A model generated the notes under the pieces. The model was not told the DNA's origin. It did no database searches and worked only from the letters and a program-made list of their open reading frames with translations. A stretch of DNA of 64,000 nt, from IMG/VR virus record IMGVR_UViG_3300048670_001567, positions 30,536 through 94,535 of that record, one strand, 5' to 3'. Of this stretch, positions 3,129 to 58,207 are shown piece by piece. The position numbers and the translations under genes are program-made. This DNA is from a virus. Lineage: Duplodnaviria; Caudoviricetes. Within the stretch, counting starts at the first letter, position 1. Every line of letters starts with the position of its first letter.

Positions 3129-4760
3129 TTATTTATGCCTGATTATTTTTTTCTGAGCTTTTGATTCTGGCAATCCTTGTGCTCGACGTTGACGTAAGAG
3201 GTCACTCATTGACGGCTCTGCTGACTGTGCTGCGGAGGATGGTGCTGAAGTAGATGGTGCTGGTGTCATCGCAGGCGCAGGTGCGGACACAGTGGTGCCA
3301 CCCTTCTTTGCTAGCACAGTGTCAACAAATTTTTTAAGGCTCTGTAAGTCTCTGGTTTTTAAGGTTGGTAAAATTTTGTTAATTTGCCCCACTTGCATTG
3401 TTGCCGTTGTTGAAGGTGCTGCTGCAGGCGTGGGTGCAGGCGACGCTGCTGGTGCTTCTGCTGGTGCTGCTGCAGGCGTTGCTGCAGGCGTTGCTACTGC
3501 GGGCGTTGCTACTGCGGGCGTTGCTACTGCGGGCGTTGCTGCGGGTGCTGCGTACGGAATATTGTTAGATTGAAAAACGGTCTGGATAACTTCTTCGCCG
3601 ACCCCCTCTTTTCTCAGAATATCGGCAATAGCCACGGAATCTGTGGGCTTCCCAGCTGCGCGCCAGGCCTGCATTAGTCTATCACTGGAAACTTTGGCTG
3701 TGAATGCACGACCAACTTTTCCCAACCCCGAGCCGACGGCACCCAGTCCTTTTTCAACTGCTCCCGCAGCACCTTTAAGTCCATCTAGTATACCTTCTTT
3801 CAACATTTGTTGTTTTTCTAATTTCAAACACAACAATACCATGTTGCTTTCTGTAAATTGATAACTTTCTCCCAACTGTTGAAATAATGCCAATGACTCA
3901 ATTGGCTGTCTAGTGAGTTTGTCAAGTATGTATAGGGTGCCTCCATCATTTTGAAAAAATACATTTTCAGGAGAATATTTGCTGGCAATGTAGTTTCTCA
4001 TGCTGGCAGTAACCCCACGACCAAGATTGCCCAGGGCCTCGCCAGCAGGGGTGGTAACAGTTTGCTGTATAATTTGAACGGGGTCTCCTGCTGCAGGAGC
4101 AGTTTGCACTTGTGCAGCAGAATGCCCCTGTGCAGGAGCAGGTTGTCCAGCAGCGGCAGAATGTCCTTGCATGGCCTTGCCAATTTGCCCTGCGGCATAG
4201 GCCATGGCGCCGGTTTCGGCACCTGCAACGGCTGCCCGACTAAATTTTTCTCCCTGCAGTAGTTTGTCTACCATTTTAAACAAGCCCAACGCAGCGGCTC
4301 CGCCCAGCCCTGCGCCACTGATACCTGCTGCAGCAATCAGTGCCGAATAGATGAGTCCCTGTGCTATGGGGTGCTTTTTGGCAAAGTCACGATATTTTTG
4401 CACATACTGCATGGCACCCTGATCACCACCAGTGGCCTGTTTGAGTTTTTCTGCGGCTTGATCGTAGATGGCATCAAAGTTTTTCATGATATTGCTATTC
4501 AAGGCCCGCTGCTTGAGGTCATCGTATGCAGCGAAAACAGCCTTGGGAACATCCACAGCGCGACCAATGGCAGTGCGATTGGATTTGTCGTTTTGTACTT
4601 GTTGGAATATCTGATTGATCTGATCTGCAGTCAACTGTGCCGCCATCAGGGAGCTGCCGGCGTATTCCCAGAGCATCATGGATCTCTGAGCAGATTTATT
4701 CAACCCTTCATAAAGGTATTGATTTTTATTTCTGGGGCGTTCGATTTCGGTTATCTTCAT
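3129..4760 (-). CDS. Ala/Pro/Thr-rich probable virion/internal protein
   Basis: likely start MKITEIE at 4760; LxE motifs; ATPAV repeats; C-terminal motif shared with 4774..5487. Confidence 0.6.
   Translation of the reverse strand: MKITEIERPRNKNQYLYEGLNKSAQRSMMLWEYAGSSLMAAQLTADQINQIFQQVQNDKSNRTAIGRAVDVPKAVFAAYDDLKQRALNSNIMKNFDAIYDQAAEKLKQATGGDQGAMQYVQKYRDFAKKHPIAQGLIYSALIAAAGISGAGLGGAAALGLFKMVDKLLQGEKFSRAAVAGAETGAMAYAAGQIGKAMQGHSAAAGQPAPAQGHSAAQVQTAPAAGDPVQIIQQTVTTPAGEALGNLGRGVTASMRNYIASKYSPENVFFQNDGGTLYILDKLTRQPIESLALFQQLGESYQFTESNMVLLCLKLEKQQMLKEGILDGLKGAAGAVEKGLGAVGSGLGKVGRAFTAKVSSDRLMQAWRAAGKPTDSVAIADILRKEGVGEEVIQTVFQSNNIPYAAPAATPAVATPAVATPAVATPAATPAAAPAEAPAASPAPTPAAAPSTTATMQVGQINKILPTLKTRDLQSLKKFVDTVLAKKGGTTVSAPAPAMTPAPSTSAPSSAAQSAEPSMSDLLRQRRAQGLPESKAQKKIIRHK
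3480..3545. repeat. 15-bp tandem repeat (about 3 copies) encoding ATPAV
   Basis: GGCGTTGCTACTGCG repeated. Confidence 0.85.
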
Positions 4761-50317: not shown

Positions 50318-50392
50318 GGGTTGCGGAGACCTGGATTTGAACCAAGAACTCAGGCTTATGAGACCTGTGTGATGCCATTTCACTATCCCGCG
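50318..50392 (-). tRNA. tRNA-Met(CAT), initiator-like, imperfect acceptor end
   Basis: 5' CGCGGG, CAT anticodon, irregular 3' end. Confidence 0.7.
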
Positions 50393-52423: not shown

Positions 52424-54478
52424 TTAGAATAGCACAAAGTCGGCAGCAGACAATTTGCCAATGCCCACCGTAGAGACTTCGGCAAATTGTACAGGCGCAA
52501 TCTTTCCAGTGCCGTCTGCATCGTAGTAGAGTTTATTGGCGGCACTGTCATAAATGACTCTGTCATACTTGTCCTGTGCCTGTGTGCCAACGATGAACTG
52601 ATCGGCAAATTTGATTGAACCAGATATCTTGAACATGGATTTAGACAAACGAACTTTGTCCACACCAACCTCAAAGTCAGTGATCGCATCAATATTAGTG
52701 GCACCGGGTGCGGTATCAAACACAAAATAATCTGCAGCAGCGCCACCAGTGAGCACATCATTACCTGATCCACCGGACATCTGATCAGACCCAGCACCGC
52801 CCTGGATGGTGTCATTACCAGCAAGCCCAGTCAGTATGTCTGATCCCAATGAGCCCACGATGCTGTTATTCAAAGTATTTCCCTTGCCCTTGAATGTTGC
52901 CGGACCAGTGTAAGTCAAATTCTCCACGTTGCTGCCCAGTGTGTAACTCACCAGTGAGGTCATTACCGTGTCAGTGCCTTGATTGGCCAGTTCCACCACC
53001 CGATCGCCAGTGCTGTCCACGTAGTAGGTGTCGTCACCCAACCCGCCCACCATGGAGTCATTACCTGCTCCACCGTCCAGGGTGTCATCACCCGCAAGCC
53101 CCGTTAGGGTGTCGTTACCACCGAGCCCCTGAATTGAATCAGCATCATTCGTTCCTGAAAGTCGATCTGCTTTGGCAGTGCCTCGGATTACGGGATCTAT
53201 ACCCAGGAAGACCTGCACTTGCTCTCCAATGTTTCTGGTAAGTGAGGGTGGAATAACTCCTCGCGCAGCGACGACATCCATAACTCCATCGTTATTGGCG
53301 TCAAAGAAAAATGCATTGGTTAAATACCAGTCAGGGAACGATTCCCTGGTCTGAAATGGCCCATTGGCATTCGTGGCGAAGTGCCCTGTGCCATCGTTGT
53401 ACCAGACCAGATCATTGAACTTACTGGGGTGAATGCCAAATGTACTGTTCCAGAAGTCTGTATAACCATCATTATTGAAATCTCTGAAATAGATCTGCAA
53501 GCCAGCACCCTTGCCAGCCAAATTATAAACAGCGCCACTTGGATCGGTTTGGAGGCGACCATTCGCATCTTGGAAATAAACCGTGGCGATGGTATTACTT
53601 AGATTCATACCAGTAACCTCGGTCTCCCAAGTGACAACCAAATCCTCCCTGCCATCGTTATTGACGTCGATGTTGGTCATGTCGACTGCACCGTAGTTTC
53701 TTTCACGATCCTGACCCAGATTCGGTCTGGCCAGAGTCTGTGTCTCAACAAAAAATCCGTTTTGCTGATTCAGGACCGCGAGGTCTCCTGGTGATTGGGT
53801 AGGATCAAACCAGCGATAAGCACCAGCAACCAAGCCATAGGAAGCACCCAATCGAATGAAGGTGGCGCCAGATGCAGAGAATGTCCCATCATTAAATTTA
53901 ACTGGCACCAGATCTTCTCGGGTGGTGAAATGACCACGCCCATCGTTTACCAGAATCCGCAAGTGCCTAAAGGATGCGATAACCGCATCCAGCTTGCCAT
54001 CGGCATTAAAATCTGCTGATGCGCCGATGTGATTGAAAGTAACATCATTATTGCCCGCCACCAAGAATTCATCAGTGGGTACGGATTTTAGTCCAGAACC
54101 CGTGCCCACGTAGAATTTTGGCTGGCTAAATTGGAAGGCCGCGCTATTTCGGTTATCTAACTCAAACCCCTGATCCATCATCAGATAATCATAAATGCCA
54201 TCACCCGTGAAATCACCAGGAACAGCGTCTCTGAAATATTGAAAACTGCTGGGGCCAGAAACCAAGTCGGGTCTGGCAGAAAAAACACCATTGGAGTTGG
54301 ACCACACCAAGGGCTGCAACTCGGGAAAAGTGGTAAAGTTAGAAGGAAAGGTAACCAGATCGGTGAATCCATTTCCGTCGACGTCGGCAATAACTACTGC
54401 ATTGATTTTGCCGTAGGCATATGTCAGGGAATTCGCTTCATTCAAATACTGCGCCGAGGTGTAAGAGGTTTTTAACAT
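52424..54478 (-). CDS. FG-GAP repeat plus RTX Ca-binding repeat protein
   Basis: DxxxDG..D repeats, GGxGxD nonapeptides, C-terminal T1SS-type tail. Confidence 0.88.
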   Translation of the reverse strand: MLKTSYTSAQYLNEANSLTYAYGKINAVVIADVDGNGFTDLVTFPSNFTTFPELQPLVWSNSNGVFSARPDLVSGPSSFQYFRDAVPGDFTGDGIYDYLMMDQGFELDNRNSAAFQFSQPKFYVGTGSGLKSVPTDEFLVAGNNDVTFNHIGASADFNADGKLDAVIASFRHLRILVNDGRGHFTTREDLVPVKFNDGTFSASGATFIRLGASYGLVAGAYRWFDPTQSPGDLAVLNQQNGFFVETQTLARPNLGQDRERNYGAVDMTNIDVNNDGREDLVVTWETEVTGMNLSNTIATVYFQDANGRLQTDPSGAVYNLAGKGAGLQIYFRDFNNDGYTDFWNSTFGIHPSKFNDLVWYNDGTGHFATNANGPFQTRESFPDWYLTNAFFFDANNDGVMDVVAARGVIPPSLTRNIGEQVQVFLGIDPVIRGTAKADRLSGTNDADSIQGLGGNDTLTGLAGDDTLDGGAGNDSMVGGLGDDTYYVDSTGDRVVELANQGTDTVMTSLVSYTLGSNVENLTYTGPATFKGKGNTLNNSIVGSLGSDILTGLAGNDTIQGGAGSDQMSGGSGNDVLTGGAAADYFVFDTAPGATNIDAITDFEVGVDKVRLSKSMFKISGSIKFADQFIVGTQAQDKYDRVIYDSAANKLYYDADGTGKIAPVQFAEVSTVGIGKLSAADFVLF

Positions 54479-54625: not shown

Positions 54626-54702
54626 TGGAGCGGGAGACGAGGTTCGAACTCGCGACATTCACGTTGACAACATGATGCTCTACCCGACTGAGCTATCGAG
54701 GC
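54626..54702 (-). pseudogene. chimeric pseudo-tRNA (GTC anticodon, Gly-type 3' half, unpaired acceptor stem)
   Basis: 5' GCCTCGA cannot pair with 3' CTCCCGC; D and T arms intact. Confidence 0.65.
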
Positions 54703-56637: not shown

Positions 56638-56929
56638 TGGTGCCCGAGGCCGGAATCGAACCGGCACACCTGTTTAGGGTGGCAGATTTTCTTACCACTA
56701 TAGTTTTCACTACCAATCCTAGGATTGTTTGTGGTCTGGACTATACCTTCATCATAGCGCAACGCCTTAGATGCTCGCCGTCTAGTCTCTACACCTTCCC
56801 ATTACTGGGCTTGGCTCGGTATTAGCAGGTTAAAGCCTTCACCGAATTTGACGAGTTCTACTCTGGTGGTTTCCCGCCAGGCACTCAAATTTTCAAGTCT
56901 GCTGTGTCTACCGATTTCACCACTCGGGC
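56638..56929 (-). tRNA. tRNA-Leu(TAA) with group I intron
   Basis: exons 56895..56929 and 56638..56690 rejoin to GCAGA-CTTAAAA-TCTGC. Confidence 0.92.
56691..56894 (-). ncRNA. group I intron (IC3-type), 204 nt
   Basis: follows U, ends in G; core GTCAAATTCGG, GTAGAGACTAGA, AAGGTATAGTCC; IGS GAGT. Confidence 0.92.
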
Positions 56930-56938
56930 CTGCTACCT

Positions 56939-57148
56939 TTACTCGTTGACCTGGTCCTCGGTGGCACCATCGTCATCATCAAATGCTTCCTGGAAGTCAT
57001 GCACAGTGTCTTCCACAAATTCTTCCACTTCGTGTGCGATATCTGACACCAGTTCTGCAACATTTTCTGCCACAGCACCAGCAAATTCTCCCACATTTTC
57101 CACCACATCCTGCATCTGCTCCAACAAATTCTTTTTTGGGTCTGACAT
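56939..57148 (-). CDS. highly acidic small protein
   Basis: 69 aa, AAGGAG RBS, 11-residue periodicity. Confidence 0.65.
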   Translation of the reverse strand: MSDPKKNLLEQMQDVVENVGEFAGAVAENVAELVSDIAHEVEEFVEDTVHDFQEAFDDDDGATEDQVNE

Positions 57149-57227
57149 AGTAAATTTCTCCTTTAGAATAACATCACTGATACTATTACAATAATCAAAG
57201 TCAACACGGATTCCACCTCCATATGAT

Positions 57228-57505
57228 TGGTGCGCCCACCTGGACTCGAACCAGGAACCAACGAATTCAAGTTTGTGTGACTTTCGCCACTCCTTGGACT
57301 ATGCCTTCACCATTGCTTGCGCTTTAGGTGGGTGCCGTCTAGTCTCTACACCTTCAACAATGTTTCCACTGAAGCTTGGCTCGGCGTTGCCATATGCTTT
57401 CGCACTTAGGGTTCTCCGAATTTGACACCATTCACTCAGCGTATTTCTACATCTGGTGCACCAAAAAGATGAGTTCGCTGCTCTGACCAATTGAGCTATG
57501 GGCGC
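57228..57505 (-). tRNA. tRNA-Ile2(CAT) with group I intron
   Basis: exons 57469..57505 and 57228..57267 rejoin to GCGAA-CTCATAA-TTCGT; adjacent to tilS. Confidence 0.9.
57268..57468 (-). ncRNA. group I intron, Azoarcus tRNA-Ile type, 201 nt
   Basis: blocks TATGGCAACGCCGAGCCAAGCTTC, GAAGGTGTAGAGACTAGACGGCACCCACCTAA and GGAGTGGCGAAAGTCACACAAAC match the Azoarcus ribozyme as recalled; IGS GTG; terminal G. Confidence 0.93.
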
Positions 57506-57524
57506 AAAACCTTCCACTGCTTAA

Positions 57525-58172
57525 CTACTCAACAAAACAATTGTACTTGAGTTCACTGTGATTGTCAACAGATTCCAGAAACTTTTTCTCTACAATTCTG
57601 CGCACAACTTTGTGAATACCCGGGTTAACTTCCAGAATTCTGGGCATGACATCGTGTCTGACCCTGTTACGAGTGTATTTGGTGTCCCAGTTACTGGTAT
57701 CGTCGTGCCAACTGACCTGATGCCGCTGACACCACTCAGCCAGGCACTGTTTGGTGTTGAGCAAGAAGGGCCTGATGACCTGATTGCGCTGATGAGGAAT
57801 GACCTTGGCTGTGCCGTGACACATGCTCCAGACGTAGGTTTCCACACAGTCATCCAGATGATGTGCAGTCACCACAGGCAGATCCAGTCGGTCAAATTCC
57901 TGATATCGCTGTTCGCGCCAGAACTCTTCCCAACTGACTGCAGCAGTTTTAAGACTGTTGTCAATCAGACTGACCAGCATGGCGATCTGATGCTGTGTGC
58001 AGTATTCAGCCACCACTCGTTGTCCCAGTGTGCTGTTCTCGGTGCCGTGATGTATGAAAATCACTGTGACGTCGTGACGTCTGCGCAGGAAATCCAGTGC
58101 GGCCATGCTGTCAACCCCACCTGAGCAGGCCACGTAGATTTCAGCAGGAATCTTACCCAGTAGTCGAATCAT
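57525..58172 (-). CDS. tilS: tRNA(Ile)-lysidine synthetase (short form)
   Basis: SGGVDS, R..RY, TAHHLDD.VET, IRPFL, D.SN...TRNRVRH. Confidence 0.93.
   Translation of the reverse strand: MIRLLGKIPAEIYVACSGGVDSMAALDFLRRRHDVTVIFIHHGTENSTLGQRVVAEYCTQHQIAMLVSLIDNSLKTAAVSWEEFWREQRYQEFDRLDLPVVTAHHLDDCVETYVWSMCHGTAKVIPHQRNQVIRPFLLNTKQCLAEWCQRHQVSWHDDTSNWDTKYTRNRVRHDVMPRILEVNPGIHKVVRRIVEKKFLESVDNHSELKYNCFVE
57540..57568 (-). promoter_or_regulatory. sigma70 promoter for tRNA-Ile2 inside the tilS 3' end
   Basis: TTGACA-17-TACAAT. Confidence 0.75.
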
Positions 58173-58178
58173 TCATTG

Positions 58179-58207
58179 ATTGTATTACTATCCAGCTGAA
58201 ATGTCAA
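58179..58207 (-). promoter_or_regulatory. sigma70 promoter for tilS
   Basis: TTGACA-17-TACAAT, 6 nt before the ATG (leaderless-like). Confidence 0.75.

Follow-up and report, generated by a model that had tools for sequence, protein, structure and literature searches.

The locus described here lies in a 64-kb stretch of DNA from a giant uncultured phage, bases 30536-94535 of the 94.5-kb IMG/VR virus record IMGVR_UViG_3300048670_001567 (Caudoviricetes), which is called the window below and whose own numbering is used for all coordinates. It holds a short gene for TilS, the enzyme that places lysidine on C34 of tRNA-Ile2, followed on the same strand by a tRNA gene with a CAU anticodon that is split by a group I intron (Table 1). 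The record has a G+C content of 44%, contains a tRNA cluster and is 27% complete by CheckV, which would correspond to a genome of ~350 kb; a TilS 93% identical to that of the window was found on a 344-kb contig. A preliminary description had placed the end of tilS 19 bp before the CAT-anticodon tRNA and had reported a 201-nt group I intron just 3' of the anticodon, with GTG as its internal guide sequence (IGS) and no homing endonuclease. All of this was confirmed. The tilS stop codon is TAG at 57527-57525, which leaves 19 nt before the tRNA start at 57505, and the open reading frames (ORFs) overlapping the intron are only 25-72 amino acids (aa) long. None of these lies wholly inside the intron. 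The 72-aa frame begins upstream of the tRNA, and neither it nor the next longest, of 50 aa, matches a Pfam family. The promoter-like motif TTGACA-N17-TACAAT occurs twice in the window against 0.06 occurrences expected, once before tilS and once before the tRNA. Both sites are kept in L117, and the one-base variant TTGACT stands upstream of tilS in L115 and L116 (labels of this kind denote fetched loci of related viral or bacterial contigs; L117 and L008 belong to one contig). Elements similar to the tRNA-proximal site also precede the tRNA in L175 and L118. With two such sites, one of them ~35 nt before the tRNA, transcription of the tRNA may proceed from its own promoter as well as by read-through.

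Table 1. Features of the tilS-tRNA locus and its downstream neighbours, in window coordinates
Feature	Position	Strand	Basis
Promoter-like site, sigma-70 type TTGACA-N17-TACAAT, just upstream of tilS	58179..58207	-	Consensus match only
tilS, 215 aa, catalytic PP-loop N-domain only	57525..58172	-	TIGR02432, PF01171, structure matches
A further copy of this site, within tilS near its 3' end and ~35 nt before the tRNA	57540..57568	-	Consensus match
tRNA-Ile2(CAU) 5' exon, 37 nt, with CAT at its end (57471-57469)	57469..57505	-	Sequence, homologues
Group I intron, 201 nt, IC3, Azoarcus type, 'Ile2.5Ug' site; IGS GUG 57461-57459; omega-G 57268	57268..57468	-	RF00028, alignment
tRNA-Ile2 3' exon, 40 nt, CCA encoded	57228..57267	-	Sequence, intronless L118 homologue
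Conserved acidic ORF (69 aa) in the interval between the two split tRNA genes	56939..57148	-	Near-identical ORF in L115 at 4534-4743
tRNA-Leu(UAA), with a 204-nt group I intron (56894-56691) between U34 and A35	56638..56929	-	RF00028 62.1 bits, ARAGORN with introns

The upstream gene had been named tilS in the preliminary description, and this identity was borne out at the level of both sequence and fold. The protein scores 115 bits against TIGR02432, the NCBIfam equivalog model of the TilS N-terminal domain (N-domain), for which the cut-off is 93.6, and it matches PF01171 (9.7e-33). The motifs SGGxDS (SGGVDS, residues 17-22), HHLDDxxET, RPF, DxSN and RNxxR, invariant or nearly so in the family, are all present. 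The sequence matches the TilS structures 1NI5, 3A2K and 1WY5 in the PDB across their N-domains, and an AlphaFold2 (AF2) model with a predicted local distance difference test score (pLDDT) of 91.2 returned TilS at each of the first six ranks of a fold search (1NI5, 2E89, two chains of 2E21, 1WY5 and 3A2K), with TM-scores on the query (TMq) of 0.76-0.78 and again over the N-domains only. In its motifs, RPF/L among them, and in its N-domain fold, the phage protein is like bacterial TilS of type I (E. coli 1NI5, Geobacillus 3A2K) as well as type II (Aquifex 1WY5). Unlike these, it has neither CTD1 nor CTD2, through which contact is made with the anticodon stem, the elbow and the acceptor stem of the tRNA. 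The full-length TilS model matched at positions 19-211 of 439 only, no CTD1 or CTD2 was found in the tilS ORF, and a scan of the 94.5-kb record brought up neither PF09179 nor PF11734. Judged from its sequence, the phage protein is neither type I nor type II; it represents a form of a known enzyme reduced to the catalytic domain, a feature that, like the promoter-like site of the tRNA itself, had not been noted in the preliminary description.

The short form has many relatives. A search at E <= 1e-10 gave 975 database proteins, of which the 120 best ones range from 181 to 222 aa in length and contain PF01171 alone; a relative is encoded on at least 546 viral contigs, and some relatives reside on contigs of 320-375 kb. 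TilS has previously been described in the jumbo phages PA5oct/MIJ3 (PMC6892783) and RsoM2USA (PMC8504454), which resemble the phage of the window in encoding a TilS homologue and have genomes of ~290-345 kb. The PA5oct protein is also short (612-nt gene) and 37% identical to that of the window, unlike the RsoM2USA protein, which has 349 aa and is only 29% identical. Neither of the two papers reports an adjacent or intron-bearing tRNA-Ile2; no tRNA was found within 2.5 kb of tilS in PA5oct, nor beside tilS in a 635-kb uncultured phage. RsoM2USA carries 43 canonical tRNAs for every amino acid but Ile, yet encodes TilS (PMC8504454). A tRNA-Ile2 may be hidden among its CAT tRNAs called 'Met', or may be encoded by a split gene that was missed.

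The splice junction of the tRNA gene is fixed by a relative, L118, whose TilS is 61% identical to that of the window and is followed after 49 nt by an uninterrupted tRNA(CAT) that reads CTCATAA. The joined exons of the window differ from this tRNA at 4 of 77 positions, and one of the four differences is a compensating pair (A31-U39 vs G31-C39) whose halves flank the intron. The mature tRNA is 77 nt long with anticodon CAU, four paired stems and an encoded CCA, and contains the pairs G1-C72, G3-C70, C4-G69, C5-G68 and G27.U43. According to PMC1635315, G3 or C70 marks tRNA-Ile(CAT), the usual pair in Met and fMet tRNAs being C3-G70, and C4-G69 and C5-G68 are the determinants for E. coli TilS. 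Further, positions 3:70 and 4:69 are critical for a betaproteobacterial TilS (PMC11947777). From the two papers, G/A3-C/U70, C4-G69 and C5-G68 are taken as the marks that set Ile2 apart from Met and fMet, and 27:43 is likewise among the positions they name. The pairs G3-C70, C4-G69 and C5-G68 of the window tRNA thus indicate tRNA-Ile2 rather than tRNA-Met. An initiator tRNA was ruled out: position 1:72 is G1-C72 and not the C1xA72 mismatch, the anticodon stem GCGAA/UUCGU does not have the three G-C pairs, and the D stem is of the C11-G25 type with no A11-U24.

The pairing of a short tilS with such a tRNA recurs. Among the 80 best viral tilS loci, on which all neighbourhood counts are based, a CAT tRNA directly follows tilS in L160 (where it is intron-split), L161, L175, L176, L177 and L226, and G3 is found in all five mature tRNAs that were read (those of L161, L175, L176, L177 and L226; L160 was excluded from that reading). 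In L175 and L177 the next gene after the CAT tRNA is a tRNA-Leu(UAA), as in the lineage of the window. An intron in the tRNA following tilS is confined, within this set, to the window's lineage. The codon demand is considerable on the phage side, with ATA making up 22.8% of the Ile codons (15.1 per 1000) in the 88 long ORFs of the record; TTA, which is read by the neighbouring intron-bearing tRNA-Leu, reaches 11 per 1000 in the same ORFs. It is quite improbable that the split gene is an ordinary elongator tRNA-Met that stands beside tilS by chance, is no TilS substrate and does not read AUA. Such a view could draw on the labelling of all such genes as Met by ARAGORN, on the fact that tRNA-Ile2 behaves as tRNA-Met as long as it is unmodified (PMC1635315), and on the absence from the phage TilS of the domains that normally select tRNA-Ile2. 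It is opposed by the acceptor-stem pairs G3-C70, C4-G69 and C5-G68 in place of the usual C3-G70, by the adjacency of tilS and a CAT tRNA in several phage lineages, and by the ~80% identity of the full pre-tRNA to intron-bearing genes of the Rhodocyclaceae, to which Azoarcus with its tRNA-Ile belongs. Moreover, a second CAU tRNA (50322-50391) may be available for Met.

The assignment of the intron to group I held when it was compared with the covariance model RF00028, with a score of 51.6 bits (gathering score 50) and an E-value of 3.3e-10 over the whole window. The IGS GUG pairs with the exon CAU through C-G, A-U and, at the 5' splice site, U.G, and the final base of the intron is G. In an alignment of 85 pre-tRNAs made with MAFFT, from which the structure counts and invariant columns are taken, the corresponding pairs C35-G47, A36-U46 and U37.G45 are invariant in 85/85 sequences and the terminal G is present in all. 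When the paired regions P1-P9 and the tRNA stems are drawn on the window, all pairs are standard except one A.G in P4. Across the alignment 91.7% of the pair cells are standard, compared with 81.2% after shuffling and 34-43% when the partners are slid, and 38 of the 75 pairs show changes on both sides; the inner P2 has a low pairing percentage because MAFFT could not bring its two sequence types into register. P1, P3 and P7, including the P3/P7 pseudoknot, never vary, whereas P9, the outer P2, P5a, P6a and P8 covary across the family, as do the acceptor, anticodon and T stems of the tRNA. The window retains every column that is invariant in its 85 homologues. GAAA is found in L2 and L9, CCUAAG/UAUGG in P5 and CCUAAA/AAUGG in P8. 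In the Azoarcus structure, the tetraloops L9 and L2 dock with receptors in P5 and P8, respectively.

From the observed gene anatomy, homology, structural conservation, presence and absence among relatives, and codon demand, we read the locus, with a probability of roughly 80%, as a phage AUA translation module in which a short TilS and tRNA-Ile2(CAU) stand head to tail, each behind a host-type promoter-like site, and in which a complete IC3 intron with no ORF interrupts the tRNA gene. Several points weigh against it. All TilS described carry at least one extra domain for picking out tRNA-Ile2, and deletion of CTD2 from a bacterial TilS causes a sharp loss of activity (PMC11947777); a TilS of one domain may therefore have low activity, lack specificity or need a partner. 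No tRNA lies within 1.5 kb at about 70 of the 80 tilS loci, so that adjacency is evidently not needed for function. The contrast between phage and host codon use is indirect. The codon use of candidate host groups comes from crude ORF calls on 8-kb loci, which are indicative only. With regard to the intron itself, the margin over the Rfam gathering score is 1.6 bits only, and P8 reads CCUAAA...AAUGG in the window and L008, as opposed to the receptor-like CCUAAG...UAUGG of Azoarcus. Finally, the isolated intron does not stand out by its minimum free energy (MFE) fold (z = -1.0), a measure that is uninformative here because the group I fold contains a pseudoknot.

Some of these points could also be taken to mean that the intron is a dead relic and the split gene is decaying without a working tRNA product, which we consider just as improbable as a chance tRNA-Met. 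Preservation of all the columns invariant in the 85 homologues, with every helix intact, is hard to reconcile with decay, and the exons are nearly identical to an uninterrupted homologue, with a compensating change in a stem. Further, the P3-P9 core is 97.6% identical to that of L008 despite only 80% identity between the TilS proteins, which points to purifying selection. What a relic would explain is the marginal Rfam score, the altered receptor-like motif in P8 and the lack of an endonuclease to maintain the intron.

Within a functional module, splicing in vivo, the activity and specificity of TilS, and the order of the steps are inferred from sequence. After transcription, the intron would excise itself. 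Until then C34 would not be free and the anticodon loop would not yet be formed, and since C34-A35-U36 is paired with GUG in P1 until the intron leaves, lysidinylation would come after splicing; lysidine at C34 would, moreover, break the C-G pair of P1. Trimming of the ends would be followed by lysidine formation at C34, for which the TilS of the phage, that of the host or the two together could be responsible, and the tRNA would then be charged by isoleucyl-tRNA synthetase (IleRS) and read AUA. AUA decoding by this tRNA would thus need both splicing and lysidinylation, as had been supposed in the preliminary description. Since the domains that distinguish tRNA-Ile2 from tRNA-Met are absent, the one-domain enzyme could conceivably follow another recognition rule, recognising nothing but the anticodon arm of its co-evolved phage tRNA, or even acting on CAU tRNAs of the host, with the intron adding a timing step to what would be a phage-controlled switch for AUA decoding. 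This more elaborate scheme is unlikely. Regardless, a catalytic-domain-only TilS that often stands beside its presumed substrate offers a natural minimal system in which to study the discrimination between tRNA-Ile2 and tRNA-Met.

The preliminary description had credited the tRNA-Ile intron of Azoarcus with the same insertion site and near-identical core blocks. This proved accurate, in that the site and the core blocks are identical, and 152 of 198 aligned positions (76.8%) agree overall. The comparison was made with L136, a locus in a single-contig 4.5-Mb genome of the Rhodocyclaceae sample, which was picked via three short motifs from the synthesis template of the Azoarcus ribozyme printed in PMC8890501. 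Its intron equals that template at all non-N positions, and its gene has the same layout of 39+205+40 nt as that of Azoarcus BH72 (PMC13168695). The blocks in which the window and L136 are identical comprise P3/J3-4/P4, J6/7-P7-P3', J8/7-P7' and P9 (for example GGTGTCAAATTCGG and GAAGGTGTAGAGACTAGACGGCACCCACCTAA), and divergence is concentrated in P2, P5a, P6a and P8. Like the Azoarcus intron, the window copy interrupts a CAU tRNA-Ile right after CAU, has GUG as its IGS, a U.G pair where the 5' splice site lies and G as its last base, contains no ORF, and shares the GAAA loops on P2 and P9 and the CCUAAG/UAUGG of P5. In contrast to it, the window copy lies in a phage genome and not on a bacterial chromosome, has 201 nt instead of 205, differs in the sequence of P2, P5a and P6a, and has CCUAAA/AAUGG in P8. 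Its 5' exon is likewise not of the 39-nt Azoarcus type; it is of the 37-nt type seen in Polynucleobacter and some Rhodocyclaceae.

Introns of this class are scattered over bacteria and phages. The core pattern AGAGACTAGACGGCACCCACC was found at 103 bacterial loci, nearly all of them in Betaproteobacteria (Methylophilaceae, Polynucleobacter, Oxalobacteraceae and Rhodocyclaceae) and nearly all in CAT tRNAs, and a slightly longer pattern was found on 9 further viral contigs. A near-full-length match with 75-87% identity is present in ~11 of 201 sampled Rhodocyclaceae genomes, many others having an intronless tRNA only. Polynucleobacter sp. MWH-HuK1 (2.2 Mb) carries an unusually high load of tRNA introns, with four RF00028 matches (L121, L125, L126 and L127 in genome G004), at least two of which lie in CAT tRNAs. 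The map of Williams 2020, from which the class name Ile2.5Ug is taken, covers bacterial tRNA introns only. In a quick tree the viral intron copies fall at five places among the bacterial families, and the copy of the window lies near Oxalobacteraceae/Burkholderiales with weak support; from intron and tRNA similarity in this tree, no host is claimed. The 9 further viral contigs, the five places in the tree and the differences between close phages are consistent with the suggestion that phages may be vectors of such introns. The distribution fits repeated exchange between phages and Betaproteobacteria, whatever its direction, and phage tRNA introns provide a concrete route by which tRNA introns could have spread so patchily among Betaproteobacteria.

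Closely related phages differ in whether they carry the intron. In the window both the tRNA(CAU) after tilS and the tRNA-Leu(UAA) are interrupted. L117, with a TilS 80% identical to that of the window, has the intron in its tRNA(CAU) and none in its tRNA-Leu(UAA), and L118 has neither. The closest relatives, L115 and L116 (TilS 93-95% identical), show the reverse of L117: the tRNA-Leu(UAA) has its intron, while the tRNA-Ile2 cassette and its intron are gone, the stretch corresponding to 57163-57543 of the window being swapped for a 249-aa ORF and a different CAT tRNA (L115:3660-4510, with the same coordinates in L116). The ORF belongs to the phage endonuclease family phrog_15137 (1e-19) and may encode, at this very site, a homing endonuclease of the free-standing kind found in other phages; no homologue of it was found elsewhere in the 94.5-kb record. 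The replacement CAU tRNA starts TCCCCCG... and has C3-G70. Further, the window intron is a mosaic, being 97.6% identical to that of L008 from P3 to the 3' end and having a P2 of the Polynucleobacter-like type. Given this mosaic make-up and its presence and absence among close relatives, the intron is most plausibly a selfish, mobile passenger that is tolerated because it splices, and not a regulator.

The opposite view, in which splicing is a regulatory gate that responds, for example, to the GTP level or infection stage and times the supply of the AUA-decoding tRNA for AUA-rich genes, strikes us as very improbable, even more so than a relic. It has the appeal that C34 is locked in P1 until splicing, that the phage makes heavy use of AUA, and that both tRNAs for A-ending codons at this locus, Ile2 and Leu(UAA), bear introns. 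Against it, close relatives fare well whether they have one of the introns, both or none; the tilS-tRNA module is intron-free in most lineages, and the same class of intron is a sporadic passenger in bacteria, as the Rhodocyclaceae counts illustrate.

The setting of the intron differs from what has been recorded for phages. According to a 2014 review (PMC3984707), every phage intron known at that time was in a protein gene, despite the many tRNA genes of phages, and our own literature searches, which were not exhaustive, turned up no phage tRNA gene described as having a group I intron. The window intron thus adds a new member to a known class, in a setting apparently not recorded in the literature. 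It is similar to the introns in phage protein genes (td, nrdB and sunY of T4, and those of Twort and Bastille) in belonging to a self-splicing class and in being variably present among related phages; unlike them, it lies in a tRNA gene and has no endonuclease. The intron of the neighbouring tRNA-Leu(UAA) has a related IC3 core but occupies a different tRNA and a different site, and is likewise carried by the phage. A further example comes from a cultured jumbo phage, Agrobacterium phage Atu_ph07 (MF403008.1, ~112890-113251; L239:801-1162, minus strand), in which an unannotated tRNA-Leu(UAA) contains a 278-nt IC3-like intron; the record annotates only hypothetical proteins in this region, and the Rfam match is below the gathering score. 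Collectively, the window locus, its relatives and Atu_ph07 demonstrate that group I introns occur in phage tRNA genes as well, and that they are of the same classes as those of bacteria. Alteromonas phage vB_AmaP_AD45-P1 (KF005317.1; L238:1087-1341, minus strand) has a group I intron (RF00028, 55.7 bits) with a core related to that of the window, which lies between two same-strand CDSs annotated as 'hypothetical protein' and probably splits one protein gene.

Split tRNA genes of this kind are easily missed or mislabelled by standard tRNA finders, with the consequence that phage tRNA sets and statements that a phage has 'no tRNA-Ile' are incomplete. ARAGORN with default settings did not detect the gene in the window, and with introns allowed it found a 77-nt tRNA with a 201-nt intron moved by 3 nt and called it tRNA-Gln(UUG). 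In all 84 distinct homologous genes the 5' exon ends in ...ACTCAT and the intron in G, and the 3'-terminal triplets of the intron vary (CAG, CGG, CCG, TTG) while CAT does not. A tRNA-Gln(UUG) with the intron 3 nt further 5' was therefore rejected as having next to no probability, since its intron would end in C, against the omega-G rule, and since both the 84 homologues and the intronless CTCATAA allele of L118 contradict it.

Other features of the window were noted in passing. The 69-aa ORF at 56939-57148 is highly acidic and matched no family. The second CAU tRNA (50322-50391, minus strand) is only 70 nt long and has G3-C70 but G4-C69, and the base of its acceptor stem is poorly paired; it may be a tRNA-Met or another substrate of TilS. 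At 54637-54695 (minus strand) there is a tRNA-like element that matches the tRNA model at positions 8-63 only (41 bits) and has an Asp-type GUC loop; its flanks form no acceptor stem, and it is thus a degenerate or unusual tRNA. Finally, the gene at 52424-54478 (minus strand) encodes a 684-aa protein that combines FG-GAP repeats, RTX calcium-binding repeats and a serralysin C-terminal domain, an unusual mix for a phage.

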